A stretch of 64,000 nucleotides of DNA from an uncultured delta proteobacterium. GTDB taxonomy: Bacteria > Myxococcota_A > Polyangia > Polyangiales > Houyiibacteriaceae. The position numbers were made by a program, and so were the translations under genes. The notes under the pieces were generated by a model that made no database searches, had not been told where the DNA came from, and saw only the letters and a program-made list of their open reading frames with translations. Positions 34,287 through 52,805 of this stretch are shown piece after piece. Location of the stretch: NCBI GenBank assembly GCA_963699755.1, contig CAVOVB010000001.1, forward strand, positions 1,408,001 to 1,472,000, given 5' to 3'. Numbering within the stretch: position 1 is the stretch's first letter; the number at the start of each line of letters is the position of its first letter.

Positions 34287-35363
<1,077 letters not shown>

Positions 35364-35385: not shown

Positions 35386-36234
35386 ATGAACTACTTCCAG
35401 ACAATACGAGATGCCGCCATCTTGCTTGCCCTCCTGATCATCCCCGCCGTCTTCCTGCGCGCCAGCCTCAGAGACCCGTCCGAGCTCTCTTGGTTGGATC
35501 GAGCATTGATTCAGCTGAGCGGCCCGGTTCAATACGTTGCCGAATGGGCAGCCGACGGTGTGACGGGCGTCATCGAGGACTACGTCTACCTGCTGGATGT
35601 CAAAAGCGACAACGATCACCTCCGTGCGGAGAACGATCGGCTTCAACGAGAGATGCGAACCCTGCGTTCCAACGCGCAGCAGGTTCGGGAGCTCGAGTCG
35701 TTGCTGGGTTTGCGCGAGCGCTTGGCGACTGAGACGAGAACGGCCCGCGTCATCGCCAAAGACATCTCGCCCTCCTTCCGTGTCGTTCGGCTCGCGGTCG
35801 ATCAGGGCGAGCAAGCGGGTTTGCATGCAGGAATGCCCGTTGTCGCCAACCAAGGGCTCGTCGGTCAGATTCGACGCGTGTCGGGTCGCTTTGCCGATGT
35901 CCTGTTGACGATTGATCCGGAAAGTCGTGTCGATGTCGTTGTCGGCGAAGGTCGGGCTCGCGGGAGAATCGAAGGGCTCGGCGAGCGTGGCCGATATCGG
36001 TGCCGCATCCAATTCGACCGCAGCGATGACCAGGTTGCGGTCGGGGATGAGGTCTTCACGTCGGGCCTCGGCAAGAAATTCCCCCCGTCGATCCTCATTG
36101 GCTACATCAGCGAGATCGGCGAACAGGAGTTCGGCCTTTACCAGGAAGGCGAAGTCGCTCCGGCGGTGGATTTCACGAGACTCGACGAGGTGCTGATCCT
36201 GACGTCTGGGCCCAAGGACCCGGACGCGCTCTAG
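35386..36234 (+). CDS. mreC: Rod shape-determining protein MreC
   Basis: TM + coiled coil, 'GLVGQI', 'TSGLG..FP..I.IG', 'PAVDF'; follows mreB. Confidence 0.95.
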   Translation: MNYFQTIRDAAILLALLIIPAVFLRASLRDPSELSWLDRALIQLSGPVQYVAEWAADGVTGVIEDYVYLLDVKSDNDHLRAENDRLQREMRTLRSNAQQVRELESLLGLRERLATETRTARVIAKDISPSFRVVRLAVDQGEQAGLHAGMPVVANQGLVGQIRRVSGRFADVLLTIDPESRVDVVVGEGRARGRIEGLGERGRYRCRIQFDRSDDQVAVGDEVFTSGLGKKFPPSILIGYISEIGEQEFGLYQEGEVAPAVDFTRLDEVLILTSGPKDPDAL

Positions 36235-36235
36235 G

Positions 36236-36760
36236 GTGGGCAGCATGCAGCGCGTTCGAGGAAGCTTGATCATCGTTCTAGTCGCGTTTGCGATGCTGCT
36301 CCTGCAGTCGGTCTTTTCGACCGTGCTAGCCCCTCATCCGTTCTCGCCCTATCTGGGACTGCCTCTGGTCTACGCCTTGGCAACGGCTCCGGGCGTGCGA
36401 CCGCTTCGCGGGGCTCTGACAGCCTTTGCCATCGGCTACTCATACGACCTCTTCACAGGGAACCCGCTCGGTCTCCACACCTTCGTCTTCGTGCTCGGCT
36501 ACTTCGCCTCCTGGCTCATCGGTTACCTCCTGCCGTTTCGCGGCATCGTCTTCGAGATGGCATTCAGCTTCGTGCTGACCCTGCTTCTCGGGGGCTTGCT
36601 CGAGCTCATTCGCGGTTTCACACCAGGGGGCATCGCTCGCAGCGCTGCGACCCTGAGCGTCACGCTCTTTGCCTCGGCTTTTGCGACGGCTCTCCTCGCG
36701 CCGATCTTGTTCGCGCTGGTTCGTTCGGTCGACCCCGAATCTGAGAGAACGCCAACATGA
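36236..36760 (+). CDS. mreD: Rod shape-determining protein MreD
   Basis: Polytopic membrane protein with 'G...DLFTG.PLG' between mreC and mrdA. Confidence 0.85.
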   Translation: MGSMQRVRGSLIIVLVAFAMLLLQSVFSTVLAPHPFSPYLGLPLVYALATAPGVRPLRGALTAFAIGYSYDLFTGNPLGLHTFVFVLGYFASWLIGYLLPFRGIVFEMAFSFVLTLLLGGLLELIRGFTPGGIARSAATLSVTLFASAFATALLAPILFALVRSVDPESERTPT

Positions 36761-38619
36761 TTACGCTCTCTCAGAGAAGAGAGGTCGGGGAGTTCCGGAA
36801 GCGATATCGCTGGATGGCCCTATTCGTCGTCCTGGTGTTCGGTGGGATCATCGTTCGTGTCGCGCAAGTGCAGCTCTTTCAGCGCGACCGATGGTCAGGC
36901 ATCGCACAGCAGAACATCACCAAAACCCAGGAGCTTCCTGCCGCACGCGGAGTCATTCGAGACATCGCAGGCCGTGTCGTTGCGTCGAACAGGCCCTCCT
37001 ACGACGTCTACACGACCCCGCGATTGCTCCAGCCCGAAGACTTGGATCGCATCGGGGGCCTGATGGACCTGAACGAAGAAGACCAGGCAGCGCTGCACGC
37101 GCGAATCGACCAGCTTCCCATGAGCCGACGCAGCCAGCAGCTCGAGCTCTTCGGTGACATCGATCGCGAGCAGCTCGCCGCATTGGAAACGCATTTGGCG
37201 GAGCTCCCTGCGCTCGATATCGTCACGGTGCCTCTTCGCGACTACCCCTATGCCACGCTTGGCGCGCACTTGATTGGCTACCTGAATGAGGTCAACGCCG
37301 AGGACATTGCGCGTGCTGCCGACCCGGGGGCCTATCGGTCAGGCGATCGAATCGGACGCAGCGGGCTCGAAAAGCGCTACGAAGCCTTGCTAAAGGGGTC
37401 ACGCGGCTTTCGACGGCAGGTGGTGGACGCCAGGGGCAAGACCCTCGAAGGAACCCGGCCCGACTCGCTCGAAGTCGAGATGCTCAAAAAGCCAATACCC
37501 GGGCACGACATCCAGCTGACGATCGACATGCAGCTGATGGAGGCGTTCGACCACGCGTTTCGGCCCTATCCTTCGGGGGCAGCGGTTGTCGTCGACATCC
37601 ACACCGGAGCGGTTCGTGCGCTCTACTCGAAGCCGGCGTACGACCCAAACGTGATGAGCAGCGGGCTCAGCACGAGAGATTACGCAGCGCTCACCGCCGA
37701 CCCGTTTCGACCCTTGATCGACAAGACGATGTATGAAACCTATTTCCCAGGCTCGACCTTCAAACCCTTCACGGCCCTGGCGGCACTCGAAGATGCGGTG
37801 GTCGATCCAGCGCAGCGTGTCGAATGCCTCGGTTCGCTCAAGATCGGCCGTCAGAAGTTTCGCTGCAACAAGCGCCATGACTGGGTCGATCTCTACGAGG
37901 CGGTAGTCGAGTCCTGCAACGTGTACTTCTGGGCGCTCGCCGAAGAGGTTGGCCTCGAGCGAATCAACCGATACGCACGGGCTTTTGGATTCGCGGATAG
38001 CACCGGCATCGGCGTCAACAGCGAGGCGAAAGGATTCTTGGCTACCCGCGAATGGTACGAAGAGCATTACGGGAGATTCCGGACCGGCTACACGCTCAAC
38101 ACGGCTATCGGGCAGGGCAACACGCGCGTGACCGTCCTTCAGCTTGCTTTGGCGTACGCTGCAATAGCGAACGGTGGAAGCTTGTACGTTCCCCAGGTCG
38201 TCCAAAACGTCAGGGCGCCAGACGGCTCTCTTTCTGAGACCTTCCAGCCACGGATCAAGCGGGAGGTCGGTGTTGCTCCGCAGCATCTAGAGCTGATGCG
38301 CCGTGCGCTCATCGATGTCGTTCAGGACGAGTCCGGTACGGCATACCGGGCGCGCAACAAGGACGGGGTGTCAGTGGCTGGCAAGACCGGCACCGCTCAG
38401 GTCGTCAGCCGAAAGGGGCGGTCCGAAGAATCCTCGAGCGCCTGGTACCTCGACCGCTCGCACGGCTGGTTTGCAGGTTTCGCCCCTGCGAAGGACCCTC
38501 AGGTGGCCTTTGCCGTCCTCGTCGAGCACGGTGGATCGGGCGGCGCGAGCGCAGCGCCGATTGCCACCTCGGTCATGCAGCAGTACCTGAGTGAGCCCGA
38601 GGCCAAGGAGGCGCAGTAG
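36757..38619 (+). CDS. mrdA: Penicillin-binding protein 2
   Basis: 'RG.I.D..G', SxxK 'GSTFK', SxN 'SCNVYF', KTG 'GKTGTAQ'. Confidence 0.96.
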   Translation: MITLSQRREVGEFRKRYRWMALFVVLVFGGIIVRVAQVQLFQRDRWSGIAQQNITKTQELPAARGVIRDIAGRVVASNRPSYDVYTTPRLLQPEDLDRIGGLMDLNEEDQAALHARIDQLPMSRRSQQLELFGDIDREQLAALETHLAELPALDIVTVPLRDYPYATLGAHLIGYLNEVNAEDIARAADPGAYRSGDRIGRSGLEKRYEALLKGSRGFRRQVVDARGKTLEGTRPDSLEVEMLKKPIPGHDIQLTIDMQLMEAFDHAFRPYPSGAAVVVDIHTGAVRALYSKPAYDPNVMSSGLSTRDYAALTADPFRPLIDKTMYETYFPGSTFKPFTALAALEDAVVDPAQRVECLGSLKIGRQKFRCNKRHDWVDLYEAVVESCNVYFWALAEEVGLERINRYARAFGFADSTGIGVNSEAKGFLATREWYEEHYGRFRTGYTLNTAIGQGNTRVTVLQLALAYAAIANGGSLYVPQVVQNVRAPDGSLSETFQPRIKREVGVAPQHLELMRRALIDVVQDESGTAYRARNKDGVSVAGKTGTAQVVSRKGRSEESSSAWYLDRSHGWFAGFAPAKDPQVAFAVLVEHGGSGGASAAPIATSVMQQYLSEPEAKEAQ

Positions 38620-38622
38620 TAG

Positions 38623-39732
38623 ATGGCGATCGGCAGAACCATTCGCGACGACTTCGATTGGCCGCTCTTCATCGCGGTGTCGACCATCGCCCTGTTCGGG
38701 GTGCTCAACCTCTATAGCGCGACCGAGGGCGGCACCACCTCGGATGCCTACGTCCAGCAGCTCTACTGGCTGATTCTCGGATTCGCGGTTGCTGCGCTGA
38801 CCGTGGCCGTCGATTACCGGCACTTCGAGCGCTATGGCTGGCTGATCTACGGCGCCTGCATTCTCGCGCTGGTCCTGGTGTTCGTTCTCGGCAGAAGTGT
38901 CAGAGGCTCCACGCGCTGGATCGCGCTTGGCGGCTTTTCGTTTCAACCGAGCGAGCTCATGAAGATCGGCCTGATCATCGCGCTTGCAAAGTATCTGCAC
39001 CACGACACCAAGACCGGAGGCCGCACCCTCGTCGACTTGGTCATCCCCGGGTTGATCCTGGCGCTGCCCATGGGTCTGGTTCTCCTACAGCCCGACCTCG
39101 GGACCGCGATGGTGCTCGCGTTCATCTTCGCGAGCATCATGATGCTGACCCAGCTCAAAATGCGCTCGGTCGTCACGCTGCTCGCGACCTTCGTGGTCGC
39201 AGCTCCTGTGACTTGGTTCTACCTGTTGAAAGACTACCAAAAGGAGCGAATAACGGCTTTTTGGGACCGCTTGGGAGGGACGCAGACCGATCTCTTGGAC
39301 TCGGGTTGGCACACGCACCAGTCGCTGGTCGCGATCGGAAGCGGCGGGCTCACCGGCAAAGGCTTCACCCAGGGGACGCAGACCCGCTTTCGCTTCCTCC
39401 CCGACCAACACACCGATTTCCCTTTCCCCGTCTGGGCCGAGGAGCACGGGTTCATCGGAGCCGTGCTTCTGATCAGCCTGTACTTGTTTCTGGTTCTCTG
39501 GTCCCTGCGGATCGCATCTCAGGCCAAGGACCGTTTCGGCGCCGTGGTCGCCGTTGGCGTCGGCGCCATGATCTTTTGGCAAACCGTCGTCAATCTTGGG
39601 ATGGTCTCGGGGCTACTGCCCGTCGTCGGGATGACCCTGCCTTTGTTCTCCTACGGCGGATCGAGCTTGCTCTCGACCATGTTGGGCCTGGGTTTGCTGA
39701 TGAACGTGTCGATGCGGAGGTTTACACATTGA
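38623..39732 (+). CDS. rodA: Rod shape-determining SEDS protein RodA
   Basis: 'GSTRWI', 'QPSE..K', 'QPDLGT', 'AIGSGG..GKG', 'HTDF.F...EE.G', 'SYGGSS'. Confidence 0.96.
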   Translation: MAIGRTIRDDFDWPLFIAVSTIALFGVLNLYSATEGGTTSDAYVQQLYWLILGFAVAALTVAVDYRHFERYGWLIYGACILALVLVFVLGRSVRGSTRWIALGGFSFQPSELMKIGLIIALAKYLHHDTKTGGRTLVDLVIPGLILALPMGLVLLQPDLGTAMVLAFIFASIMMLTQLKMRSVVTLLATFVVAAPVTWFYLLKDYQKERITAFWDRLGGTQTDLLDSGWHTHQSLVAIGSGGLTGKGFTQGTQTRFRFLPDQHTDFPFPVWAEEHGFIGAVLLISLYLFLVLWSLRIASQAKDRFGAVVAVGVGAMIFWQTVVNLGMVSGLLPVVGMTLPLFSYGGSSLLSTMLGLGLLMNVSMRRFTH

Positions 39733-40553
39733 GGGAGTCCAAGAAAGTCTTGGCGGGCGTCGTGCAAATGAGCTCCACTGCCGACGTCGACGCCAACATG
39801 GACGTCGTGCACCGGCTCGTGCGCGAAGCCGCCGGTCGTGGCGCCGAGATGGTCCTCGTCCCCGAGTGCTTTTCGTACCTGGGCCCCGAGAAGGGCAAGG
39901 TCGCGATCGCTGAATCACTCGAGGACGGCGGACCGATTCTCGACCGCTGTCGAGACCTGGCAGCGGAGGCGGGCATCGACGTGGTCTACGGCGGCTTCTG
40001 GGAGAAGAGCGAAGCGCCGGGGAAGGTGCGCAACGCTTGCATCTACATGCGTTCGGACGGCTCGGTCGCCGCTGTCTATCGAAAGATCCATCTTTTCGAC
40101 GTCGACTTGCCCGATGGCACCAAGGTGCTCGAATCACAGACGGTGGAACCTGGCTCGGACTCCGTGGTGGCCGATGCGCCCTTCGGGAAGCTCGGGCTCA
40201 GCGTGTGCTACGACCTACGCTTTCCCGAGCTCTATCGCCGTCTGGTCGATCAAGGGGCGATCGCCCTCGCCATCCCGGCCGCGTTCACGCTCACCACCGG
40301 CAAAGACCACTGGCACGTCCTGCTTCGTGCGCGGGCGATCGAGCAGCAGTGCTATGTCCTGGCTGCCGCACAAACGGGACACCACTATGGCGAGAGGCAC
40401 TCCTACGGCCATGCGCTGATCGCGGACCCCTGGGGCACGATCCTCGCCGAATGCGGAGAGGGTGAAGGCGTAGCTGTCGCTCTGATCGAGCCGGCATATG
40501 TGGCAAAGGTCCGCAAGGCCCTGCCGAGCCTTCAGCACCGGCGCATTCCGTGA
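39729..40553 (+). CDS. Carbon-nitrogen hydrolase (Nit1-like amidase)
   Basis: Glu-Lys-Cys triad: 'PEC', 'YRKIHLFD', 'VCYDLRFPE'; 'LRARAIE'; TTG start overlaps the rodA stop. Confidence 0.9.
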   Translation: MRESKKVLAGVVQMSSTADVDANMDVVHRLVREAAGRGAEMVLVPECFSYLGPEKGKVAIAESLEDGGPILDRCRDLAAEAGIDVVYGGFWEKSEAPGKVRNACIYMRSDGSVAAVYRKIHLFDVDLPDGTKVLESQTVEPGSDSVVADAPFGKLGLSVCYDLRFPELYRRLVDQGAIALAIPAAFTLTTGKDHWHVLLRARAIEQQCYVLAAAQTGHHYGERHSYGHALIADPWGTILAECGEGEGVAVALIEPAYVAKVRKALPSLQHRRIP

Positions 40554-40563: not shown

Positions 40564-41391
40564 CTAGCCTGGGAACCAGGGCATCAGTCGGCTCGTCATC
40601 CGTTGGTACTGGGCATACGCCGGATATTTTCGCGCGGAAATCTTCTCGGTTAGAGCCGTGGAGCCCTGGAACAGGAGCGAAAGAACCGCGGCGCCAGCGA
40701 TGGTCCAGTTGAGCCAGCCGGCGCCCGCTGCAATCGAAAACACGTAGTAGGTCCACCAAATGGCCTGCTCGCAGAAGAAATTCGGATGCCGCGAGTACCG
40801 AAAGAGCCCCGTCGTGATGAAATTAGCCTCCGGGGTTTCGCCCCGCGCGATGGCTGCGTACTTCGCCGTCTGGAACTTCCACTGCTGCTCATCGGCCACC
40901 GACTCCCCGATGAAGAATAGGATGAAAGCAATGGCCGCGGCGTAGTCCAGTGCGTTGAGAGGCGTTCCCGCCAATCGATAAGCGGCGTACGAGGGGAGGA
41001 CGATGAACAGGAGAAGGAAATTCTGGAAGGGTGCCAGAAAGGTCGCGTTCAGGACCTGGAACCAAGCTGGTCCGATTTTCGATTGAATCTCTTTCCAGCG
41101 ATAGTCCTCGCCTCCCGGCTTGTAACCGCCCTTGCGCGCGAAGTTATAGGTGAGGCGAATACCCCAGAGCACGGTGAGGGCGGCCATCAGATTCAGCCGG
41201 GTGTCACCGAAGCCGACATAGGCTGCGAAGTGCATCGCGAAGAGTGGGGGCGTGATCGACCAGATTCGGTCGACCCAGGAGTACTCTCTAGTGATCAGGG
41301 ACAGGAGCCAGCACAGGAGCGCCAAAGCGCCCGCAGCCCAAAGTGCGGTGGTTAGCGGATCGGTCGCCTTGTAGACATCGAGCAATTGCAT
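40564..41391 (-). CDS. DUF1295 / steroid 5-alpha-reductase-like membrane protein
   Basis: 'YSWVDRIWS', 'WGIRLT', 'EDYRW', 'E..AD.Q...F', 'GLFRYSRHPNFF.E'. Confidence 0.88.
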   Translation of the reverse strand: MQLLDVYKATDPLTTALWAAGALALLCWLLSLITREYSWVDRIWSITPPLFAMHFAAYVGFGDTRLNLMAALTVLWGIRLTYNFARKGGYKPGGEDYRWKEIQSKIGPAWFQVLNATFLAPFQNFLLLFIVLPSYAAYRLAGTPLNALDYAAAIAFILFFIGESVADEQQWKFQTAKYAAIARGETPEANFITTGLFRYSRHPNFFCEQAIWWTYYVFSIAAGAGWLNWTIAGAAVLSLLFQGSTALTEKISARKYPAYAQYQRMTSRLMPWFPG

Positions 41392-41457
41392 GTTGTCTCT
41401 TTGCTCCTGGCGCCGTTGGCGTCAATTGGTCCCGCTCCGCCGCCGCCGCGCTATCGC

Positions 41458-42966
41458 TTAGACTTCGTACAGGACGTCAAGGTAGCGTTCGAGCAGGTCG
41501 GTGACGACGCCCTGGACAGGGACGGTGCTCGCCATTCCATAGACCGGCGCCATACCTTCCTCTTCATCGGGGTGAGTCCGCACATGGGTGACCGCGGCGC
41601 GCAGGTCATCGAGGAAGCGCTTCCGAACCCCCTCTTGCGTGTGTCGGAGGGTGACCGCGATGTGCACGGCCGGAGGCTTGTGCAGGCCGTTCAGGTTCCA
41701 TTGACGCTTGGTCATGAAGTCCATGATGCTGTAGATGTTGAGCTCGTCGGACGTGAAGGCGATCACCCAGAGCGGGTCGCCGAGGACGCGGAGCTCGGCG
41801 ATTTCGCGGATGCCATCTCGGATCTCTGCGCCCGTCTCTAGAATCCGGCGGCTCGCATCGAGATAGCCGCTTTCTCCCATGGACAAGATGGCTGCCCAGC
41901 AGGCCGCGCTGAGCGCACCCGGGCGGCTCCCTGCGAACGTGGGCGAAAAGTATAGGCCGCCGGGCCAATCGGCGACGGTGTAGTACTGGTAGTGGCGAAG
42001 ATCCGGGCTGCGGTAGAGCACGACGCTCGTGCCTTTCGCCGCGTAGCCGTACTTGTGTGTGTCCGCAGACATCGAGGTGACACCGGGCAGACGGAAGTCG
42101 AAAGGTGGAACCTCATAGCCGAGCTTCTGTGCAAAGGGCAGGACGAACCCGCCGAGACAAGCGTCGGTGTGGAAACCGACTCCGCGCTTGCGAGCGAGCT
42201 CCGAAAGCTCTTCGATGGGATCGATCGCGCCGTGTGGAAACGACACGGCCGACCCCACGACACAGATGGTGTTTCCAGTGATCGCCTTCTTGGTGGCAGC
42301 GACGTCTGCGCGATAGTCGGGGCCAACCGGAACTTTGACGAGCTTGAGCCCGAAGTACTGTGCCGCCTTGTCGAAGGCTGCATGCGCGCTGCTCGGAACG
42401 AGCAGCTCTGGGGACGCGATCCCCTTCGTGTCGCGCGCCCAGTCCCGGTAGCTTCGCATCGCGAGGAGGATGCTCTCGGTACCGCCACTTGCGACCGAGC
42501 CGCAGACTTTGGCGGCCGAAGCCTGCTTGGCACCGAGCATGTTGGCCGTCATCGAGACGATTTCAGCTTCATACTTCGCGATGCTCGGCCAGAGGTCGGA
42601 GTGAAGCGGATTGGTCTGAGAAGTGATCGCATAGGCCTCGTTGAGAAAGGCGATGTGCTCTGGGTCGCCGTGGTACACCGCACCGGAGACGTAGCCATCC
42701 TTCCAGCGATCCGCTTCGCGCCGGTCGAGCTCTCGCAAGGTGGCAAGGATTTCCGTGCGGGGCTTGCCCTCAGGGGGCAAGTCGGCGTGACTCTCGACTT
42801 CGCCCTCGTACGGTTTTGCGCCTTTGCGCAGCTCTTCCATGATCGGTGCGTACTCGGCATCAAGCCTTTCCCTCACGATCGGAAAACGCTTTGCAAAGCG
42901 GTAGATGCGCCCCACCAGTGGCTCGAGTGGGCCGAGCTTGATGCTCGCCAGGTCTTTGATGTTCAT
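41458..42966 (-). CDS. Sphingosine-1-phosphate lyase-like PLP enzyme
   Basis: 'VSGAVYHG', 'NPLH.D.WP', 'SGGTESI', 'AHAAF.KA', 'HTDACLGGF', PLP-Lys 'SADTHKYG', 'WPGGLY.SPT.AGSRPG'. Confidence 0.88.
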
Positions 42967-43016
42967 CGCCCCTCCGTACCGCAGCGCCGGGCGCTCCGCT
43001 AGTCTTGGTGACGGCC

Positions 43017-44588
43017 TCAGCCGTTGAGCCGCCTGTACATCGCAGCGTTGTTCTTTTGGATTTCCAGGAAGGCCTTGAACAGCTCGTCATAAATCGCTCG
43101 GTTGCCGGCATCTGGCGTGTAGCGTTTTTCGATGGGGACCCGCGATGGGATGTCCTCGACCTCGAGCTTGCCGAGGCCGACGGCAGCGACGAATGCCGCG
43201 CCCCGGACGTTGGCCGAAAGGGGATCGGCGACCTGGTCGATGGGACGGTCCAGCACATCGGCGAAGATCTGGCACCAGAGCTCCGACTTCGCGCCGCCCC
43301 CGATGAATCGAATTCCCTCGAACGGCCTGCTGATGAACGACTCGACCCCGCGCATGAGCCAGCGGGTGTTGTAGGCGACGCCTTCCATGACCGCGCGCAC
43401 CATGTGAGCCCGCGTCGTTCTCAGCGAAACGTTCGAAAACGCAGCGCGCAGGTTGTGATCGGCGACCGGCGTGTGCTCACCGTAGAGCCAGGGTGTGAAG
43501 ATCAGCTTGTCGCTGCCGGCAGGCGCCTCCGCTGCGAGCTGATTGAGACGATCAAACACATTCGCAGGGGGGCCTCCCGGGTCGAGCACGTCATCCCTGC
43601 AAAGCACGTTGTCGCGCAGCCAAGTCATGCACGCCCCGGCCGTTTCCTGCTCGTTGCCAATGAAGTACCGACCTGGCAGCGCGGATGGAAGGGAGGCCAT
43701 GTTGTGAATGAGGTCGGTCTTCTTGAATGGCACGTGGCAGGTCAGCCAAGACGAGGTTCCCACGTAGAGGTGTCCATCGAAATCGCCGACGGCGCCGGAG
43801 CCGACCGCGGCCGCGGGCACGTCCGGCGTTCCTCCGACGACCTTGGTGTTCTCCTCGAGGCCTAGCTCGCCGGCAGCCCTCGGGGTCAGGGTTCCGATCA
43901 CGTCCACGGCTCGAGTGAGGTCGGGAAGCTTCTCCCTCGGGATCGTGGTCTGCGCGAGCAGCTTGTCGTCGTACTTGATGTCGTTGATGTCACGATTGTC
44001 GGTGACCCAATGGAGCGCTATCGAGTCGACAGTCGCCAGGAATTTTCCAGTGAGCCTCAGGTTCAGATAGTCCTTTGGCTCCATGAACTTGTATGCAGCA
44101 GCGTAGATTTCCGGGCGCTCGTGTCGAAGAAATAGGATGTGTGCCACCGGCTCCTTGCCGGCGAGGCTCGGGACGCCGCCCGTCTTGCGAAGCCAGCTTT
44201 CGAGCTTCCGCGCGCCATAGCCTTGAATGCGGATCAAACCGCCGGCGACTTCGGGCACGTACTTTGCGCCGCGCGAGTCGAGCCAGATCATCGCCCTACC
44301 GAGCGCGTTCCCGGCTTGGTCCACTGGCACGGTGCCTGCCCACTGCGAGGTTACCGCCACAGCGAGGATCCGCTCTCTCGGAACCAGCTCGCGGTCGGTG
44401 ATCCGACGCGTCGCAGCCGTGATCGCGCGCCACCAATCGTCCGGATCCTGCTCGGCGCCGCCGCCGTCGCTCAGAAACAGCTCGGTGGACTCGACCTCGG
44501 CGGCCAGCACTTCGCCTTCGGTCGTGACGAGCGCCACTTTCGGGCCGCTGGTGCCGAGGTCGATCGCGAGAATGCATTCCGGTTCCAT
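43017..44588 (-). CDS. FGGY-family carbohydrate kinase (xylulokinase-like)
   Basis: '[10 protein letters not shown]', 'EQDP..WW', 'WLDSR', 'KDYL..RLTG', 'GTSSW', 'RAVMEGVA', 'GGGAKS..W.QIFAD'; GGAGG RBS. Confidence 0.92.
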
Positions 44589-44740
44589 GGATGTCTCCTC
44601 CGCACGCCCTAGAAGTCGTATACCTCGTTCTCTAGACCGAAGTCTTTAGGCCCCAGTCCGGGGTTCAAGTCCAAAATTGGTTGGTCGTATGATCCGTACA
44701 CGCGACCCTGCTCCGTGCTGCCTAGCCCCTGTTCTTCGGC

Positions 44741-45409
44741 TCAGTAGGCATCCATTCCTTTGGGTATATGGCCCCGAGCATAGCTCTCGGCCGCGCGCTT
44801 CCGATCTCTGTGCATGCGGCCCCGCGCGATGTAGCTCGCCCAGCTCGGCACCCTTCGTATGCGATCGCCGCTGGCAAGCGCGACGACGTACGCTTTCGCG
44901 CATTTCTCGAAGAGCTCGGCATTGAACACGAGGCGGTTCGCCGTGGTGCCGAGGCAGATCCGCTGGTCTCCGTAGATCAGGACGTTCGCGCCGCCTTCAA
45001 GCGCACCGCACAGGCGAGTGGGGCGCCCCACAGCGATGGGCCTGCCGATCACGCCGATGTGTCGAGCTTGCTCATCGAAGAGGGTTGGGATCGTGGCTCC
45101 GATGTTCGAGAGCGCCGAGGACCATGGAGTCCTCCCGACTAGAATCGCGCCCGCATCGTGGCGAGATCGATAGATCGCTGCATGCAGGCCAGCCGCTTCG
45201 TTTCCCATCGTCTCGAAAGGAACCCATCGCTGTTCGTCGCTGCCCGTCAGCAAGAGAAGGCACGCCTGATGCCCGGGTATCCTCATCGACAGAGACCCGT
45301 CAGCCTCGCCGAAAAGCGCTTTGCTGCGGAGCCTCGCTTCATCCTTGCGTAAGAGCTCGGAAATTTCGTTCATCTCGTCTGTGCTCCTCGAGCGAGCTGG
45401 TAAGCTCAT
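44741..45409 (-). CDS. Class II aldolase/adducin-like protein lacking the metal-binding motifs
   Basis: 'LHAAIYRSR.DAGAI', 'FDEQARHIG', 'NAELFEKCAKAY'; HxH and NHG motifs absent; ATGA overlap with upstream gene. Confidence 0.7.
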   Translation of the reverse strand: MSLPARSRSTDEMNEISELLRKDEARLRSKALFGEADGSLSMRIPGHQACLLLLTGSDEQRWVPFETMGNEAAGLHAAIYRSRHDAGAILVGRTPWSSALSNIGATIPTLFDEQARHIGVIGRPIAVGRPTRLCGALEGGANVLIYGDQRICLGTTANRLVFNAELFEKCAKAYVVALASGDRIRRVPSWASYIARGRMHRDRKRAAESYARGHIPKGMDAY

Positions 45410-46074
45410 TTCTGAGTCTCCTCGGTTGCTTCGCCGGACACCGACCGAAGGACATCGGCTACGAGCGCGTCCACGGAGGGGCTCAGGCGCTTCGAGCTTC
45501 GTTTGGTCCGCGCCAAGAAGAAGGCTGCGCACTCGGATTCGAGGGCGGCTAGCCTGGTCATGGCCTCGCTCGCATCACTGCCCACGCAGACCACACCATG
45601 GTTGCGCATCAAGTACGCGTGGATCTCGGGCCTCACCGCTCGCGCAACCCGCATGGCCAGCAAGCCCGTCCCAGACGGCGCGTAGCCCACACAGGGGACT
45701 GTATCCCCGAGCAGAGGTCGGTGCTCAGGACCTTCAACTCTCAGAGGCTTGGCGAGGAGTGTGTATGCGCTTGCGATCGGCTGATGCGTGTGCACGCTTG
45801 CCCCACAGTCCGGACGGGCCGCGAGAACCCTAGCGTGCAGACCCGCCTCGACCGAGGCTTCGCGATCTCCTTCGACCTGCTTCCTGTCCGAGAGACGCAT
45901 GATGCAAACCTCTGCGGCAGTCATGGCGTAGTAGTCGGTTGCCGATGGTGTGACCGCGAAGCGATCCGCGTCGATGCGCAGCGCTACATTACCCCCGGTC
46001 CCAGCCAGGTAACCCCTCTCGGCCAGGTCGATGCAGATCCTCACGACCTGCTCTCTCGTCGCCTGAAACTTCAT
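45406..46074 (-). CDS. Class II aldolase/adducin family protein (FucA-like)
   Basis: 'GTGGNVA', 'TPSA', 'ASVEAGLH', 'VHTHQ', 'LMRNHG'. Confidence 0.9.
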   Translation of the reverse strand: MKFQATREQVVRICIDLAERGYLAGTGGNVALRIDADRFAVTPSATDYYAMTAAEVCIMRLSDRKQVEGDREASVEAGLHARVLAARPDCGASVHTHQPIASAYTLLAKPLRVEGPEHRPLLGDTVPCVGYAPSGTGLLAMRVARAVRPEIHAYLMRNHGVVCVGSDASEAMTRLAALESECAAFFLARTKRSSKRLSPSVDALVADVLRSVSGEATEETQK

Positions 46075-46079
46075 CGCGG

Positions 46080-46143
46080 TCGCTCCTCGCGTCCGCGTCG
46101 CCTAAACCTGAGATGCACTTACGTTTGGCGACGCTAGGAGCGA
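46080..46143 (-). promoter_or_regulatory. Stem-loop occluding the RBS of the aldolase gene
   Basis: TCGCTCCT (46080-87) / AGGAGCGA (46136-43) and GCGTCGCCtAAAC (46095-107) / GTTTGGCGACGC (46123-134) are nested inverted repeats. Confidence 0.5.
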
Positions 46144-46207
46144 TGCTTGTGTCTTGCAAGGACGAACAAGCCTTTATAGAGGCAGGCGAGCTGGATCGCT
46201 GGATTCC

Positions 46208-47218
46208 CTAGTGAGCGGCGGCTTCCACGGCCTTGAGCAGGCTCTTGCTGTAGATACCGCGCTCGGCGAGCTCTTCTCGGGCCTTCTTCGCTGCTGCGTC
46301 CCAGGCAGCCTCGTTCGCGGAGGCGTCGACTTCCGTGATGCCGCGGCCAAGGAGGGTCTGGTAGGCGCGGGCGTCGTCGCGGCCGACGATTTGGTCGAGC
46401 TTGGAAGCCGCACGCTTGGCGGTGTCGAGCAAGGTTTGCTGATCCGCCTTGCTGAGCTCGTTGAACTTCTTCTTACTGATGATCGAGCCGCCAACGATGA
46501 TGTTGAAGTTGCTCGAGCTCATGTACTTGAGCTTCGTGTACCACTGGAACGCGACTGCAGCCATGGCGGAGGCGGGCACGACCTGCAGCTTGCCTTCCTT
46601 GAGTCCGGGGAACACGCCGGACGCGCCGATTTTCACGGGAGTCGCGCCGAGGGCCTTGATATAAGCGAGCGCTACGGCGTTATCCTCGCCGGCCCAGCCG
46701 GGCTTGCCAGCGAGGTCCGCAGGCGAGCTGAACTCAGTCGAGGAGAACACCCGGTTCTTGCCGCCGTCTCCCCAGGCGAGCAGCTTGAAGCCGCCGTCTT
46801 CGATCAACTTCTGCAGCTGCGAGTCGAGCTTCTCGCGCGCCCGGTCGAGTTGCGCGTCGGTGGTGAGAAGCCCTGGAGCCGTCAGCACCTGGAGCGCGGG
46901 GGCCACCATGCTCAAGCCCGTGGTGGCGACGCCCGCCGCGTCGAGCTTGCCCGCCTTGATCCTTGATACGAGATCTCGGTCACTGCCTTCGCTGCCACCC
47001 GAAAAGACGCGAAGCTCGACTCGGCCTTCGGTGTCTTCCTGAAGCGTTCGGCTCCAGGCCTTGAGCACTTTCACGAAAGACGAGCCGGGCGGGGCCAGCG
47101 ATGCGATCCGGATTACGGTCGCCTTGCTCGTAGGTGTCTGAGAGACCGCGGAGCGCCCAGGGACAAGCAGCGCGGCGAGCGTGAGAGCGAGGATCAGGGC
47201 AAATTTGCTATGCTGCAT
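46208..47218 (-). CDS. TRAP transporter substrate-binding protein (DctP family)
   Basis: Signal peptide; 'IASLAPPGS', 'TEGRVEL', 'GGSEG.D', 'AFQWYTKLKYM'. Confidence 0.88.
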   Translation of the reverse strand: MQHSKFALILALTLAALLVPGRSAVSQTPTSKATVIRIASLAPPGSSFVKVLKAWSRTLQEDTEGRVELRVFSGGSEGSDRDLVSRIKAGKLDAAGVATTGLSMVAPALQVLTAPGLLTTDAQLDRAREKLDSQLQKLIEDGGFKLLAWGDGGKNRVFSSTEFSSPADLAGKPGWAGEDNAVALAYIKALGATPVKIGASGVFPGLKEGKLQVVPASAMAAVAFQWYTKLKYMSSSNFNIIVGGSIISKKKFNELSKADQQTLLDTAKRAASKLDQIVGRDDARAYQTLLGRGITEVDASANEAAWDAAAKKAREELAERGIYSKSLLKAVEAAAH

Positions 47219-47255
47219 ATCGACTCACCGTTGGACGGCCCCAGGCCGCAGTTGT

Positions 47256-48266
47256 TCACTTTTCGGAGGCCAGCTTGGTGACCTCGGCCAGCAGGCTCTT
47301 GCTGTACACGCGGCCCGTCAGCTGCTCCCGTGTCTCTTTGGCGACGGCGTCCCATTCGGCCTTGTGCGGGCTCAAGTCGACCACTTGGATGCCTCGTTCG
47401 ACCAGGGTCCTGTACGCCTTCTCGTCATCTCTCAGGACGATCTTGTCCATGGCGCGCGCGCCGCGCTCGGCGGTGTCGAGAAGGATCTTCTGGTCGCCTG
47501 GCGTAAGCTGATCGAAGACTTCCTTCTTGATGATCGAGCCGCCGATCAAGATGTTGAAGTTCTGCTTCGCCATGTAGTTAAGCTTGGTGTACCACTGGAT
47601 CGCGACCGCCATGATACAGGAGCTGGGCACCGTGTCGATCATCCGGGTCTGCAGGCCGCCATACACCTCGTTGGCGCCAACGCGCACGGGGTTCGCGCCG
47701 ATCACGCCCAGGAAGCCCGCGAAGACGGGGTCGTCTTTCCAGGCCCAGGGTCGGCCCGACTTGAGATCACTGGGTCGCGCGAAAGGCCTGGTCGAGAATA
47801 GACGGTTCTTGCCGCCGTCGCCCCAGGTCAGCAGCTCGAATCCGACATCCCGGAACATCCCTTCGAAGCGCTCACGAAGCTCGGTCCGGACGTGAACGAG
47901 TTGATCCATCTCGGTGATGAGCCCGGGCGCGGTCAGTACCAGGATCGGGCGCACGATCATGCCCATGCCCGTGGTGGTGATCCCCGCCGAGTCGATCTGA
48001 CCGGCGCGGATCTTCCGAATGAAGTCGCGTTCGTCGCCCTGACTGCCCCCGGTATAGAATCGGAGCTCGGCGCGACCCTCGGTTTCCTGTTTGAACGTGC
48101 GGCCCCAGGCTTTGAGGATTTTACCGAACGCCGAGCTCGAGGGGGCTAGCGATGCATACCGAATCACGATGGGTCCATCCGCCGCTGCGCTCGGGACTTT
48201 GCCGCCGGGTAAGAAGAAGCTAGCGAATGCGAGACCTGTCACCAACAAGTGCTTGCAAGTGCTCAC
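47256..48266 (-). CDS. TRAP transporter substrate-binding protein (DctP family), paralog of the adjacent gene
   Basis: 'YASLAPSSS', 'GGSQGDE', 'WGDGGKNRLFS', 'QWYTKLNYM', 'VYSKSLL'; GTG start 48266 with AGAGGA RBS. Confidence 0.88.
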   Translation of the reverse strand: MSTCKHLLVTGLAFASFFLPGGKVPSAAADGPIVIRYASLAPSSSAFGKILKAWGRTFKQETEGRAELRFYTGGSQGDERDFIRKIRAGQIDSAGITTTGMGMIVRPILVLTAPGLITEMDQLVHVRTELRERFEGMFRDVGFELLTWGDGGKNRLFSTRPFARPSDLKSGRPWAWKDDPVFAGFLGVIGANPVRVGANEVYGGLQTRMIDTVPSSCIMAVAIQWYTKLNYMAKQNFNILIGGSIIKKEVFDQLTPGDQKILLDTAERGARAMDKIVLRDDEKAYRTLVERGIQVVDLSPHKAEWDAVAKETREQLTGRVYSKSLLAEVTKLASEK

Positions 48267-48280
48267 CCTTGATCCTCTTA

Positions 48281-48898
48281 CTACAAGCCGAGGGCGGGAA
48301 CCAATCGCCGCCTCAGGAATTCCCGGAGCTCGGCTTCGGTCCGCTCGGGCTCGGGGGCTGCCAGGAGAGAGAGGATCAAACGGAGCATGAATTCCATGGC
48401 CTCCGTGCCATCGGGCTCGTCCCAGCCCGTGGCGTCGATGATCTCGCTCAACGCGACACGGGTGAACATGATCGACGCCGGTTGGGTGAAACCCTGCAAG
48501 AGGTAGGCATCGAACGTGGCGGGCTGCCACACCTGCCGGAGGACTGGGTTCTCCCGGATGGTGCGGAGGGTGAACACGGCGGCTTCAACGATTTTGTCGC
48601 TCGGCTCATCCAAGTCTCGAATGTGCGCCTGGATGTCATTTGCAAGGCGGAGCCCAGCCTGAAGCAGGGTCGAGCGGATGAGCTCCTCCCGGCCTTTGAA
48701 GTAACGATAGACCGTCGGGCGGCTCACTCCGGCTTCGAGCGCAACGTGCGCGATGCCGGTGCCTGGGATCCCGTTACGGGCGATGCAGCGAGCTGTGACT
48801 TCGAGCAGGCGCTCGCGGGCGGCCGCCGGCTCTGGAGGGTCTCCATCCCAGGCCTCGCGCTGCTTGGCACGAGGATCTCGATCCGCGTTTCGCGTCAT
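48281..48898 (-). CDS. TetR/AcrR family transcriptional regulator
   Basis: HTH 'IAHVALEAGVSRPTVYRYF'; 'E.MLRLILSLL..P'. Confidence 0.92.
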   Translation of the reverse strand: MTRNADRDPRAKQREAWDGDPPEPAAARERLLEVTARCIARNGIPGTGIAHVALEAGVSRPTVYRYFKGREELIRSTLLQAGLRLANDIQAHIRDLDEPSDKIVEAAVFTLRTIRENPVLRQVWQPATFDAYLLQGFTQPASIMFTRVALSEIIDATGWDEPDGTEAMEFMLRLILSLLAAPEPERTEAELREFLRRRLVPALGL

Positions 48899-49329: not shown

Positions 49330-50388
49330 ATGGCTTTTCGCTCACTGTCGGTACCGGTATGTTTTCTTGTAATTCTATGGGGTTGCGGGGAGGCTTCGAG
49401 CGGGCCCCGATCTAGTGGTGGCACCGGCGGATCAGTCGGGTCTGGGGGCTCGGGCGGATCTGGAGGCACGGGCGGCACTGGGGGTACCGGCGGTGCGGTG
49501 GGTACTGGAGGCACGGGCGGCACGGGTGGTTCGGGAGGCACGGGCGGCACCGGGGGCACGGGCGGTACCGGGGGCACGGGCGGTACCGGGGGTGGGGAGG
49601 TCTGCGTCACCAGCGGGCTGTGCTTCTCCTGTCCTAGCGAAAGCGATGCGAGCTGCGACTGCAACGTAGACGAGGTTTGCGTACCGAGCGGTTGTGAGAC
49701 CTTCGGCGGAGATCCGATCATGCAATGCATGCCCGCACCAGGCGGGGCATGCATCGACAACAACGATTGTGCTGCCGAGTACGACTGCGTCGACGTTGGA
49801 TTCGGAAAGAGTCGGTGCGTCAAGCAGACCCCGGGTTGTAACAGCGGCGCTGACTGCATCCTGGGATTCTCCTGCGAGGGTGTCCCCGGCAGCTGCGTCG
49901 ATCGACGCCTGCCCTGTGACGACTACCTCGACTGTCCGAAGGGGCACGTTTGCAAGGGCCAGCCGAACTCCCAGTTCTGTCTGAGGGTGAACCAGGGCTG
50001 CGAGAGCGACGACGATTGCGCGGATCTGCCCACTCCGTGGTGCGCTGATGTCGATGGCGATGGCACCGGTGAATGCGCTGGATCTCCGTCTCCTAACGAT
50101 GTTCCTCCAGGACCCGCTTGCGTGAACTCGAGCTGCACTGGCAGCACACCGGTTTGCGAGGTAGCCGCGATATCCAGTCTGGCGACCTGCGGCCAATACG
50201 GTTTGTGTCAGGTTAGCGGCGATTGCGCTCCTGGCTTCGAGTGCGTTGGCCTCTGGCCCGACGGTCGCAAGGAGTGCGTCGAGACGGGCGGACTCTGCGC
50301 TCACGTCTCGGATTGCCCGGAGCAGCAAGTCTGCGCTTCACCACGGGCCGGGGGTCCGCCCAGCTGCCAGCGCGGTTCTGCACCCTAG
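49330..50388 (+). CDS. Cys-rich repeat lipoprotein with Gly/Thr linker
   Basis: AGGAG RBS; lipobox LWGC; (GGT)n linker; 36 Cys in repeated four-Cys modules. Confidence 0.85.
   Translation: MAFRSLSVPVCFLVILWGCGEASSGPRSSGGTGGSVGSGGSGGSGGTGGTGGTGGAVGTGGTGGTGGSGGTGGTGGTGGTGGTGGTGGGEVCVTSGLCFSCPSESDASCDCNVDEVCVPSGCETFGGDPIMQCMPAPGGACIDNNDCAAEYDCVDVGFGKSRCVKQTPGCNSGADCILGFSCEGVPGSCVDRRLPCDDYLDCPKGHVCKGQPNSQFCLRVNQGCESDDDCADLPTPWCADVDGDGTGECAGSPSPNDVPPGPACVNSSCTGSTPVCEVAAISSLATCGQYGLCQVSGDCAPGFECVGLWPDGRKECVETGGLCAHVSDCPEQQVCASPRAGGPPSCQRGSAP
49417..49596 (+). repeat. Degenerate 9-bp tandem repeat encoding a (Gly-Gly-Thr/Ser)n linker
   Basis: Repeated GGCACGGGC/GGTACCGGG units within the lipoprotein CDS. 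Confidence 0.85.
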
Positions 50389-50396
50389 GAGGCAAC

Positions 50397-52805
50397 ATGA
50401 AGAAATCCCCCAACGCTCCCTGGTTTCTCTTGCTAGTCGCGATGGCGCTCTCCGCATGTGAGAGCGGCGGCGGCTCCGCGGTTTCCGTTCAGCAGAAGGT
50501 GGTCACTCCGCCCGGTCCCTGCGGTGATGGCGATCCAACCTGCCAAGTGGCGATGGACTTCCCGACGCAGGGCGACCTCACCATCGACAACAGCGACAAC
50601 ATCGTCTTCTCAGCATCCGACGGGGCGATCACACTGACACCCGGCAGCAACGTGGTCATCGACACCGATGGGGACGGCGTACCGAACTGGGCCGACGACT
50701 GCCCGGGACCGGGTTGGCGCACGCCTTGCGATGGTGACCCCAGCGACGACGGCATCTACGACACGGCGTACTACAACTCCGACAGCCAAAACACTCTTGC
50801 GGCCGACGTCAGCATCTCGGGCAAGATCAACTTCGCGGATGCATACATCTTGATGGACAGCACAGGCAGCATGGGAGGCGAGCAGGCGCAGCTCGTCGCC
50901 GACCTGACCGCGAGTACCTTCGGCAGTTGCCCGGGCGCAGCCGGCACGGGCCTCATCGGTGCAATGAAGTGCTCGATCGCTGACCTCTGGATGGGCGTGG
51001 GAGAGTTCAAGGAGATTCCGCTGTCTCCGCATGCGAACCCGTATAGTCAGACTCCGTTTCACCACTACCTCGACATGACCGACAACGTTGGCGACATCCT
51101 TGAGGCCGCTGCATCGCTCGTCACCCGCTCCAACAGCGACCGGCCCGAGGCTGCCACGCAGGCCCTCTACTCGGTTGTGACGGGTAAGGGTCTTGGGCCC
51201 TACGTGCCGAACCGGGGCGCCTGCCCCTCGTCGCCCGCTGGACGCTGGGGTTACCCGTGTTTCCGGCCCGGGTCTCTACCGATCATCATTCTCTTCACCG
51301 ATGCACCCATGTGGAACGGACCCCTTCCGGCCAGCGGCGTATATGCCAACCCTCCCTTCGACGGGATCCTGGGTGCTGGCGCGCTCCTGCCGCCGGTCGA
51401 GCAGCATCCAAACATGCTCTTTGCGACCGACGCCTTCTCGGCGCACGACCTGGGCGATTTGACCAACAAGTCGGTTACCGTGATGGGAACGAACGCCAGG
51501 TTCGATGACAGTGCGACGACCTGGAATTTCGGGTCGTGCCTGCGCGGCAGCTCCGGCAATTACTACGGGGACGGGTTCGATGGGTTCGTCAAGTTCTCGC
51601 TCAGCGCTCCGACCAGCGTGTCGCTCAGCGGCCAGGGTACTCACTACCCTCTGTCGAACATGGCCCTGGCGAACTCATCTGGCACGTTTCTCGGTTGCGA
51701 CAATGGGCCGGGCGGCGGTGACCGTTGGGGTCGCCTGAACAATGTCGCCCTCGGGACTGGTGACTGGTACGCGATCAACGATTCGGCGGTGTCTCCCAGC
51801 AGTAGTGCCAACGCCAACCGTGGCCCGTTCCAAATCCGAATCCAGACCACTGCTCCCGATCCCAGTTGGCTGACGACTGACCTACCCGTGCCTTGGGCCG
51901 ATGTCCAAAACGAGCTCTTGGCAGCGGGCGTGAAGATCCTGACCGTCATTAGCCCCCGGGCGAGCGACGTGACGTTGGTGACCAACGAGGCCAACGCGCT
52001 AGCGAACCTCACCGGTTCCGTCGACCAAGCTGGCAACCCATACGTCGAGTCCATCGCTGAGGACGGAACGGGGCTTTCGACCGCGCTTCTCGATGCGATT
52101 GACTCCCTGGTCGCGAACACCCGTCGCGATCTGACCATCATCGCGGAGGACAATCCCGCGACTCCGGCCGTCGATGAGAGCCGGTTCGTCACGCTGATCG
52201 AGGCCTCGAGCTGTCCAACCGTCGGAATACCCAACTGCCTCGGCGGTCAGGGCACGGACACCTGTCTCGGCTGCTTGGCGAACGCCGGAGCCGGTTTTGA
52301 GTTTCGGATCGGAAACAACTTCATACCGCCGAGCGAGTTCCCGCAGGTCTTCGAGTTCGAGCTGGTCGCGATCGCCGACGGAACGGTGGAGCTTGAGCGG
52401 ATTCCCGTCCGAATCATGGTGCCGGGCGACGGCGCCAGCTACGGCAACGGCTTCTATGAAAACAACTACGCGGCGGAGGTCGTCTGTACGATGCCTCCCG
52501 AGCGTCCGGACTGGGGGAATCTGACCTGGATCGGCTCTACGCCGTCGGACAGCACTGTGGAGTTCGAGATCTTCACGGGGAACACCCTCGCGGAGCTGGA
52601 TGCCCAGATTCCGGTTTCGATCGTCTATCCGACCGACACGACGCTTCAAAGCTATGATCTGGGGGAGACGCTCGTCGCCAACGGCCGTCCGAACTACATG
52701 CCTTTGCTTCGCGTGAAGGCGAAGCTCAACGCCTCGAGCGATAGCTATTACACGCCTATCTTCGAAGGCTGGTCGACCCAGTTCCGCTGCATCCCGTTCG
52801 ACTAG
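50397..52805 (+). CDS. Large vWA-domain lipoprotein (CglB/adhesin-like)
   Basis: AGGAGG RBS; lipobox LSAC; Ca-binding-type 'DTDGDGVP...DDCP'; MIDAS-like 'LMDSTGSM'; 'PEAATQAL'; 'GYPCFRPGSLPIIILFTDA'. Confidence 0.8.
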   Translation: MKKSPNAPWFLLLVAMALSACESGGGSAVSVQQKVVTPPGPCGDGDPTCQVAMDFPTQGDLTIDNSDNIVFSASDGAITLTPGSNVVIDTDGDGVPNWADDCPGPGWRTPCDGDPSDDGIYDTAYYNSDSQNTLAADVSISGKINFADAYILMDSTGSMGGEQAQLVADLTASTFGSCPGAAGTGLIGAMKCSIADLWMGVGEFKEIPLSPHANPYSQTPFHHYLDMTDNVGDILEAAASLVTRSNSDRPEAATQALYSVVTGKGLGPYVPNRGACPSSPAGRWGYPCFRPGSLPIIILFTDAPMWNGPLPASGVYANPPFDGILGAGALLPPVEQHPNMLFATDAFSAHDLGDLTNKSVTVMGTNARFDDSATTWNFGSCLRGSSGNYYGDGFDGFVKFSLSAPTSVSLSGQGTHYPLSNMALANSSGTFLGCDNGPGGGDRWGRLNNVALGTGDWYAINDSAVSPSSSANANRGPFQIRIQTTAPDPSWLTTDLPVPWADVQNELLAAGVKILTVISPRASDVTLVTNEANALANLTGSVDQAGNPYVESIAEDGTGLSTALLDAIDSLVANTRRDLTIIAEDNPATPAVDESRFVTLIEASSCPTVGIPNCLGGQGTDTCLGCLANAGAGFEFRIGNNFIPPSEFPQVFEFELVAIADGTVELERIPVRIMVPGDGASYGNGFYENNYAAEVVCTMPPERPDWGNLTWIGSTPSDSTVEFEIFTGNTLAELDAQIPVSIVYPTDTTLQSYDLGETLVANGRPNYMPLLRVKAKLNASSDSYYTPIFEGWSTQFRCIPFD

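Follow-up and report, generated by a model that had tools for sequence, protein, structure and literature searches.

How does a free-living bacterium that carries a sphingosine-1-phosphate (S1P) lyase supply that enzyme with substrate? S1P lyases require a 1-phosphorylated base (PMC6148460; for this and the other papers cited here, statements refer to the sections drawn on), and in those sections of PMC6148460 and PMC5234717 the bacterial enzymes are treated for the most part as means by which pathogens act on host S1P, the supply in free-living species not being addressed. The question is raised by a 64,000-nucleotide stretch of DNA, hereafter the window, from an uncultured delta proteobacterium (GTDB lineage Bacteria; Myxococcota_A; Polyangia; Polyangiales; Houyiibacteriaceae; assembly GCA_963699755.1, contig CAVOVB010000001.1, positions 1,408,001 to 1,472,000 of the forward strand), in which a gene for an FGGY-family kinase directly precedes a gene for an S1P-lyase-like enzyme. 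An earlier, sequence-only reading had proposed that this kinase phosphorylates sphingoid bases for the lyase. Gene order, conservation and residue comparisons lead us to regard the FGGY enzyme as probably a sphingoid-base kinase outside the DAGK family that feeds the lyase, with a probability of roughly 0.7.

The gene families named in that reading were confirmed by open reading frame (ORF) calls and a Pfam scan: eight co-oriented minus-strand ORFs occupy positions 40564-48898, and each matches its named Pfam family. In window coordinates the features are:

48281..48898, minus strand: TetR-family regulator (PF00440), a variable member of the cluster
47256..48266, minus strand: tripartite ATP-independent periplasmic (TRAP) solute-binding protein DctP1 (PF03480, NF037995), with Trp174 at the carboxylate-binding Arg position
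46208..47218, minus strand: TRAP solute-binding protein DctP2, with the same Arg-to-Trp change and about 50% identical to DctP1
45406..46074, minus strand: AldA, the half with the metal site of a FucA/DrdA-type class II aldolase (top PDB hit 6BTD)
45374..45409, minus strand: AldA/AldB junction, the aminotransferase site of relatives, reduced to a short spacer and an ATG that overlaps the stop codon of AldA
44741..45373, minus strand: AldB, a degenerate class II aldolase or pseudo-aldolase (27.3 bits against a cut-off of 22.2)
43017..44588, minus strand: FGGY-family kinase of an unnamed subfamily (PF00370 and PF02782), predicted to act as a sphingoid-base 1-kinase
41458..42966, minus strand: S1P-lyase-family enzyme of Symbiobacterium type (pyridoxal phosphate (PLP) decarboxylase Pfam family)
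40564..41391, minus strand: DUF1295 membrane protein with a possible steroid-reductase/ICMT fold (PF06966), weakly linked to the pathway

The kinase-lyase pair is the conserved unit of this cluster. A scan covering 30 of 64 parts gave 565 matches to the kinase, and in the 79 loci fetched from the best 80 of them a lyase adjoins the kinase in 48, while 24 have room for a lyase but lack one and 7 end too close to the kinase. By record title, the paired loci come from six bacterial phyla (Myxococcota, Spirochaetota, Actinomycetota, Bacteroidota, Chloroflexota and Dormiibacterota) and from archaeal Thermoplasmatota, with the order of the two genes reversed in the archaeal loci and in L037 (L labels, L0xx-L2xx, denote fetched loci; G000 is the genome of the window and the remaining G0xx labels are other genomes). 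A reverse test in 301 Myxococcota genomes found a kinase within 2 kb of all 21 lyases at 59% identity or more, 12 of these lyases being from the same genus, window included. Within that genus, 28 of 36 genomes hold a kinase orthologue, and the lyase follows it in 27 of the 28. The wide co-occurrence on which the sequence-only reading depended was thereby borne out. Because the kinase directly precedes the lyase and the pairing is kept across many microbes, the kinase likely activates sphingolipid backbones.

Several variants of the pair were also recorded. The window genome contains a second pair, whose kinase and lyase are 36% and 42% identical to those of the window; it lies at L080:9627-12610 (G000:C1:261.6-264.6 kb), is deeply diverged and common in the genus, has an aldehyde dehydrogenase gene 3.6 kb away and is met by a convergent EEP-family gene. 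The Thermoplasmata loci L031, L034-L036 and L039 read phosphoesterase, lyase, kinase and major facilitator superfamily (MFS) transporter, and at L237:6721-7536 and L238:7001-7819 an inositol-monophosphatase-family gene is inserted between kinase and lyase. Locus L032 comes from a record with Comamonas in its title, has flanking genes in common with the Myxococcus loci, and may carry the wrong label. Cultured Myxococcus has the pair as well (L022, L025, L028), which allows a direct test.

The identity of the lyase is secure at the level of sequence: the PLP enzyme is an S1P-lyase-family protein. It scores 686.9 bits against the Symbiobacterium S1P lyase (3MAD) versus 92.8 bits against the best amino-acid decarboxylase, which rules out the decarboxylase identity that the sequence-only reading had named as fatal to it. 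The scores against the Burkholderia and Legionella S1P lyases are 409 and 252 bits, and the protein scores below the MfnA cut-off. All 14 active-site residues listed in Table 3 of PMC6148460 are kept, comprising those of the PLP cup and PLP sandwich, the Lys, the Asp, the substrate-phosphate residues and the entry Tyr476. About 100 other lyase-like proteins in Myxococcota, at 39-50% identity, have no adjoining kinase of this FGGY subfamily.

The kinase is an FGGY enzyme by domains, fold and catalytic residues alike. Both FGGY domains are present, the AlphaFold2 model (predicted local distance difference test score, pLDDT, 95.5) has the FGGY fold, every listed Foldseek match is an FGGY kinase, and alignment with E. 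coli XylB and GlpK shows that the catalytic D10, T13, D256 and T278 are retained. The protein scores below all named FGGY cut-offs, reaching 264.5 of the required 380.25 bits for XylB (TIGR01312), and it departs from XylB in its sugar contacts as well: XylB M77/H78/N97/N234 are W83/A84/L103/V257 in the window kinase, where H78, N97 and N234 of XylB are presumably polar contacts to sugar hydroxyls. W281 occupies the position of GlpK F271, W83 and W281 are found in 76 and 80 of 82 aligned family rows, and over the aligned positions compared the pocket is more hydrophobic than that of XylB or GlpK. The pocket varies within the family: position 84 is occupied by Glu in some of the relatives linked to an aminotransferase. 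A Pfam scan of the kinase gave no match to PF00781, the DAGK catalytic domain, and the enzyme may function as a sphingosine kinase without belonging to the DAGK family. The claim that it is no ordinary xylulokinase is upheld by the absent sugar contacts; the proposed sphingoid role gains support from co-occurrence and from lipid-related neighbours and remains a prediction from sequence.

The closest kinase relatives, 85-91% identical, lie mostly in Polyangiales, Myxococcales or Deltaproteobacteria records. A FastTree phylogeny of 87 rows, for which 35 near-duplicate locus prefixes among 115 kinases were left out, unites 81 family members in a single branch (support 98) that excludes six E. coli FGGY kinases, a result that is partly by construction since likeness was the criterion for choosing family members. 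Across this tree the partner switches back and forth between lyase and aminotransferase, with at least 3 and at least 4 changes forced by its starred branches.

Genes that would fit a long-chain lipid substrate recur near the kinase family. Ceramidase genes lie near kinase genes in L026, L182 and L220-L222, and SCP2 and FadL genes near the kinase in L220 and L222. Three Myxococcota genomes of one genus share the order aldolase-aminotransferase-SCP2-kinase-TetR-ceramidase-FadL, checked by Pfam in two. Other neighbours were seen too. A saccharopine-dehydrogenase-like gene directly upstream of the kinase (L071, L076-L079, L223-L226, L228-L230) is a third recurring partner, and its product could oxidise a C2 amine. 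In L233-L236, kinase relatives of 38-42% identity stand beside genes for phosphoenolpyruvate (PEP) mutase, a thiamine pyrophosphate-dependent decarboxylase, a class V aminotransferase and a CDP-alcohol transferase, likely a phosphonolipid cluster. Kinase, aminotransferase and RuBisCO-like genes occur together in L049, L053, L058, L060 and L061; two of these loci, L049 and L061, also have a kinase-lyase pair at a distance of 1-3 kb.

In the pathway that we propose, a sphingoid base would be taken up by DctP1 and DctP2 via a TRAP membrane module encoded elsewhere, phosphorylated at C1 by the FGGY kinase, and cleaved by the lyase to phosphoethanolamine and a fatty aldehyde, which an unlinked aldehyde dehydrogenase would oxidise. 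A second branch may have started from the same kinase product: an aminotransferase acting at C2 would convert phytosphingosine-1-phosphate to a 5-alkyl-D-ribulose-1-phosphate analogue, which an AldA/AldB heteromer would split into dihydroxyacetone phosphate (DHAP) and pentadecanal. Phytosphingosine has the D-ribo configuration. The proposed ribulose-1-phosphate derived from it would fit the 3R,4R stereochemistry of FucA and DrdA (PMC6079011).

This second branch gives a place to the two class II aldolase genes, which the sequence-only reading had left unexplained. AldA residues N29, S74, E76, H95, H97 and H159 correspond to FucA N29, S71, E73, H92, H94 and H155 and do not vary in any of the 56 rows aligned; AldA thus has the three His, acid-base Glu and phosphate-binding Asn and Ser of the FucA/DrdA type, and scores below all named NCBIfam cut-offs. 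AldB has none of the three metal-binding His and no catalytic Glu, which places it outside that type. Its D100 sits at the position of FucA Tyr113, a residue that we take to reach in from the neighbouring subunit, and D100, E101 and the terminal Y210 are invariant in 52 of 52 rows. The AldA-type and AldB-type residue sets occur together in single-chain relatives (L060, L074), and the near-identical loci L204 and L205 encode a natural AldA-AldB fusion of 446 residues, the sole fusion type found. The simplest reading of these residues is that AldA and AldB are complementary halves of one heteromeric enzyme. An AraD-like epimerase was considered and rejected because Glu76 stands, invariant in 56 of 56 rows, where AraD has Asp. 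Pseudogenes were likewise rejected, as the frames are open and the ratio of nonsynonymous to synonymous substitution rates (dN/dS) is below 1: in same-genus, aminotransferase-free pairs with dS below 1 it is 0.14-0.27 for AldA, 0.22-0.43 for AldB and 0.04-0.08 for the kinase. The window-type aldolases are still under selection, more loosely than the kinase. In L204 and L205:3761-7597, genes for an APH-family kinase and a GlpD-like flavin adenine dinucleotide (FAD) oxidoreductase precede the fusion, replacing the FGGY kinase and aminotransferase.

What the window lacks is the aminotransferase. Among 62 metagenome AldB loci, collected by scanning 17 of 64 parts, a class III aminotransferase lies directly upstream of AldB in 52 and the full kinase-AldA-aminotransferase-AldB order is present in 26; an aldehyde dehydrogenase occurs in nine of the 62, an endoglycoceramidase-like GH5 protein in two and a ceramidase in one. 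The relatives' 1.4-kb class III gene lies between AldA and AldB. In the window its leftover is a start codon overlapping the AldA stop (an ATG in frame with AldB lies at 45409, upstream of the AldB start), and the same stop/start overlap is seen at AldA-aminotransferase-AldB in the same-genus genome G020. There the order is DctP-DctP-AldA-aminotransferase-AldB-TetR-MFS-DUF1571-like-kinase-lyase-DUF1295, with both branches around one kinase. Three queries found no aminotransferase orthologue elsewhere in G000 (completeness 100%, contamination 9%), the best matches being 36-37% identical and hemL-like. On the genus trees of AldA and AldB, the latter a quick version, the presence of the aminotransferase needs three changes, at least 2 of them forced, and the window branches are longer than those of G020 (AldA, 0.29 versus 0.05). 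Gene order and residues suggest that the aldolase pair likely represents the remains of a second breakdown route made up of kinase, aldolase, aminotransferase and pseudo-aldolase. Whether the window's second branch now borrows another C2-oxidising enzyme or decays slowly stands at about even odds. At L103:7214-13740 in G011, AldA-AldB lies downstream of genes for DctP, a sterol methyltransferase and a FAD oxidoreductase, away from the kinase-lyase pair.

A broader picture can be offered tentatively, and we hold it with considerably less conviction than the kinase assignment itself: the FGGY subfamily would be a widespread prokaryotic sphingoid-base kinase, the hub of a lyase exit and of a phytosphingosine aldolase exit through an obligate two-paralogue aldolase; the genus would have joined both in one operon, and aminotransferase-less lineages would keep the aldolases with another C2-oxidising enzyme.

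Several observations weigh against the proposed pathway. In the 301 Myxococcota genomes, pairing was seen for no more than 32 of the 133 lyase-like matches and 32 of the 64 matches to the kinase family (counted from 55 lyase places that cover every genome with a kinase match), and the related genomes in such counts are not independent samples; unpaired members are common, and both families must therefore also work with other partners. For the second branch, AldA orthologues occur in 13 of 36 same-genus genomes and the aminotransferase in only 3, and the AldA loci of G006, G007, G009 and G011 lie away from the kinase-lyase pair. Ceramidase is present at few loci, EutB for ethanolamine use was not found in the genome, and the genome has two DAGK-family kinases, one of them near a ceramidase-like ORF. 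That last point is the basis for supposing that sphingosine is really phosphorylated by a protein of the DAGK family and that the FGGY enzyme performs another step or serves the aldolase branch only. Known sphingosine kinases are of the DAGK family (PMC6148460), a DAGK/YegS gene lies 1.3 kb from the ceramidase-like ORF and near a DctP gene at G000:C1:1.90 Mb, and in L059 a DAGK gene is divergent from the FGGY kinase. Yet the gene at 1.90 Mb is co-oriented with an acyltransferase gene, which fits glycerolipid metabolism, and the neighbour of the lyase is the FGGY gene and not a DAGK gene, including at many loci without aldolases, so that we find this exchange of roles improbable. Ordinary sugar catabolism, in which a pentulose or deoxy-ketose is the substrate of FGGY kinase and aldolase while the lyase gene is just carried along, seems to us less probable still. 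Kinase-aldolase pairs are standard for fucose and rhamnose, the sources annotate the kinase as 'xylulokinase', and in G007 AldA/AldB adjoin a GH106 rhamnosidase-like gene; however, the kinase scores and residues described above depart from XylB and GlpK, no sugar isomerase turned up among the scanned neighbours, and it is the aldolases that are dispensable and the lyase that is constant.

Other alternatives keep the chemistry and change the substrate or its source. A short or non-lipid 2-amino-1,3-diol or amino-polyol, processed by the same lyase chemistry, would suit the kinase relatives that stand beside saccharopine-dehydrogenase-like enzymes, RuBisCO-like proteins and phosphonate-lipid genes, as well as the small ketose phosphates that aldolases of the AldA class are known to take; we consider it unlikely, given a lyase far nearer to the Symbiobacterium enzyme (StSPL) than to any decarboxylase, the kept substrate-entry Tyr476, and ceramidase, SCP2, FadL and endoglycoceramidase-like neighbours that point to long chains. 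Recycling or detoxification of the cell's own sphingoid bases is compatible with the proposed kinase function and differs from it in purpose. The genome encodes an alpha-oxoamine synthase distinct from BioF (G000:C2:525200-526348, L240) that scores best on the Bacteroidota serine palmitoyltransferase (SPT) model, at 319.9 bits (318.4 for bioF), and is conserved across the order, in 55 of 61 genomes searched, so that the substrate may be the cell's own lipid. This candidate nonetheless falls far below every SPT cut-off (640, 500 and 670), the kinase occurs in only 1 of 25 genera of the same sample, genes for solute-binding proteins stand at the head of the operon, and FadL and ceramidase are encoded at other kinase loci. 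Own-lipid recycling is a possibility to be taken seriously, though a doubtful one. Of the suggestion that the cluster serves the use of prey or detrital sphingolipids, sphingolipid breakdown is thus favoured, and the lipid may come from prey or detritus or, a candidate SPT being present, from the cell itself. Blocks of DctP, acyltransferase, DAGK kinase and ceramidase-like ORF (L121:7787-13036 and L123) were also noted; similar blocks on C1 and C7 (also L125/L132 and L133/L134) suggest strain mixing in the assembly.

Returning to the predicted sphingoid-base pathway, its transport and membrane genes are more loosely attached: the DctP pair, TetR and DUF1295 track the kinase only among close relatives, and TetR, present in some same-genus loci, is absent from L011, L101, L109 and L114. 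Neither DctP1 nor DctP2 has the conserved Arg of classical carboxylate-binding DctPs, presumably the carboxylate-binding residue; Trp replaces the corresponding Arg of E. coli YiaO in 12 of 12 aligned members of this DctP family, from which a non-carboxylate, hydrophobic ligand is inferred. About 10 further paralogues are scattered over the genome, some duplicated between contigs (assembly contamination 9%), and orphan Arg-less members sit near lipid and steroid genes. Neither DctQ/DctM nor TatT is encoded within the cluster; elsewhere, G000:C1:1504170-1507329 encodes a TatT-DctQ-DctM module that has no binding protein of its own, and the genome holds three TatT genes, the DctP adjoining one of which keeps the Arg. 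TatT binds long-chain fatty acids (PMC11713862). The closest known counterparts are the TatT-associated TRAP (TPAT) lipid transporters (Tp0956/Tp0957, Es_TatT) described there, but here the TatT genes lie outside the cluster and the expanded DctP family, unlike the DctP beside TatT, lacks the Arg. A Tp0957-like identity for the two DctPs was considered and not established, as Tp0957 ranks 5th and 7th among their PDB hits and is not the top match.

For DUF1295, the role of pathway reductase that had been assigned to it found no support. In eukaryotic sphingolipid breakdown the enoyl chain is reduced by a steroid-5-alpha-reductase-family enzyme. DUF1295 is present at none of 33 distant kinase-lyase loci versus 11 of 17 close ones, several of which end early. 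An orthologue occurs in 34 of the 36 genomes of the genus; among them are G008, G013 and G034, where neither the window-type kinase nor the window-type lyase was found. The structural likeness is weak: the top Foldseek hits of its model (pLDDT 73, against 45-51 for four other models) are SRD5A2, a sterol reductase, ICMT and PbSRD5A (E 0.2-0.6), with template modelling (TM) scores of 0.42-0.45 to SRD5A2 and PbSRD5A, and ICMT and sterol reductase match as well as the SRD5A/trans-2-enoyl-CoA reductase family does. Its ESM Atlas neighbours carry PF02544, and sequence and profile searches of the PDB matched no solved structure. A reductase step is possible but unsupported, because the gene is absent at distant loci, its fold likeness is weak and it is kept without the pair; DUF1295 probably belongs to the lipid genes of the genus and is attached to the operon without being a required step. 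The eight-gene cluster, which as a whole unit is restricted to one genus, is a genus-level assembly: kinase and lyase form its core, the second branch is present in truncated form, and the genes for transport, regulation and the membrane protein are loosely attached.

The predicted reactions resemble known systems in part. Eukaryotic SK1/2 or Lcb4/5 followed by SGPL1/Dpl1 carry out the C1 phosphorylation and PLP-dependent retro-aldol cleavage that are predicted here, and the lyase residues are conserved; in that route the kinase is of the DAGK family (PMC6148460), whereas here it is of the FGGY family and its gene is clustered with those for TRAP binding proteins. The closest characterised enzyme to the window lyase is StSPL of Symbiobacterium thermophilum (PDB 3MAD); it and the Burkholderia and Legionella lyases are described in the sections cited (PMC6148460, PMC5234717) as stand-alone or secreted and acting on host S1P, with no partner kinase named. 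The sugar-kinase gene that the sequence-only reading placed beside the Burkholderia lyase found no confirmation in the main text of PMC5234717, where neither 'kinase' nor 'operon' appears. FucK-FucA and DrdK-DrdI-DrdA (PMC6079011) likewise join a kinase to a metal-dependent class II aldolase that yields DHAP and an aldehyde, and AldA shares the Glu and three His of FucA and DrdA; unlike in those pathways, the ketose would arise by transamination and not isomerisation, the aldolase is split into two paralogues and the aldehyde would be long-chain. The open-access literature searched yielded no paper on an FGGY sphingoid kinase or an aminotransferase-aldolase route. The kinase-lyase pair would be a variant of an established route in which the kinase is non-homologous; the link of both routes in one operon and the missing aminotransferase are added here. 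The G020 operon ties the predicted aminotransferase-aldolase route to a characterised enzyme family via one shared kinase. If the assignment is correct, an FGGY sphingoid kinase would explain how free-living bacteria supply their lyases, many 'xylulokinases' would need re-annotation (7402 of 7997 scored candidates passed E 1e-50, not all of the same subfamily), and a way in which environmental microbes turn over sphingolipids would be indicated.

Within the cluster, the intergenic gaps from TetR to DUF1295 are 14, 37, 133, 32, 152, 50 and 66 bp, a spacing from which co-transcription of the eight genes seems likely; a scan of the cluster for promoters and terminators was at chance level, with 1 promoter site versus 1.2 expected. 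The 3' end faces a convergent carbon-nitrogen hydrolase gene that stops at 40553, and the GC content is level with the remainder of the window. Beyond that end, positions 34326-40553 hold mreBCD, a penicillin-binding protein gene, rodA and the hydrolase gene (named from translations, only the hydrolase being Pfam-scanned), and on the other side positions 49330-52805 encode secreted-looking Gly- and Cys-rich proteins.

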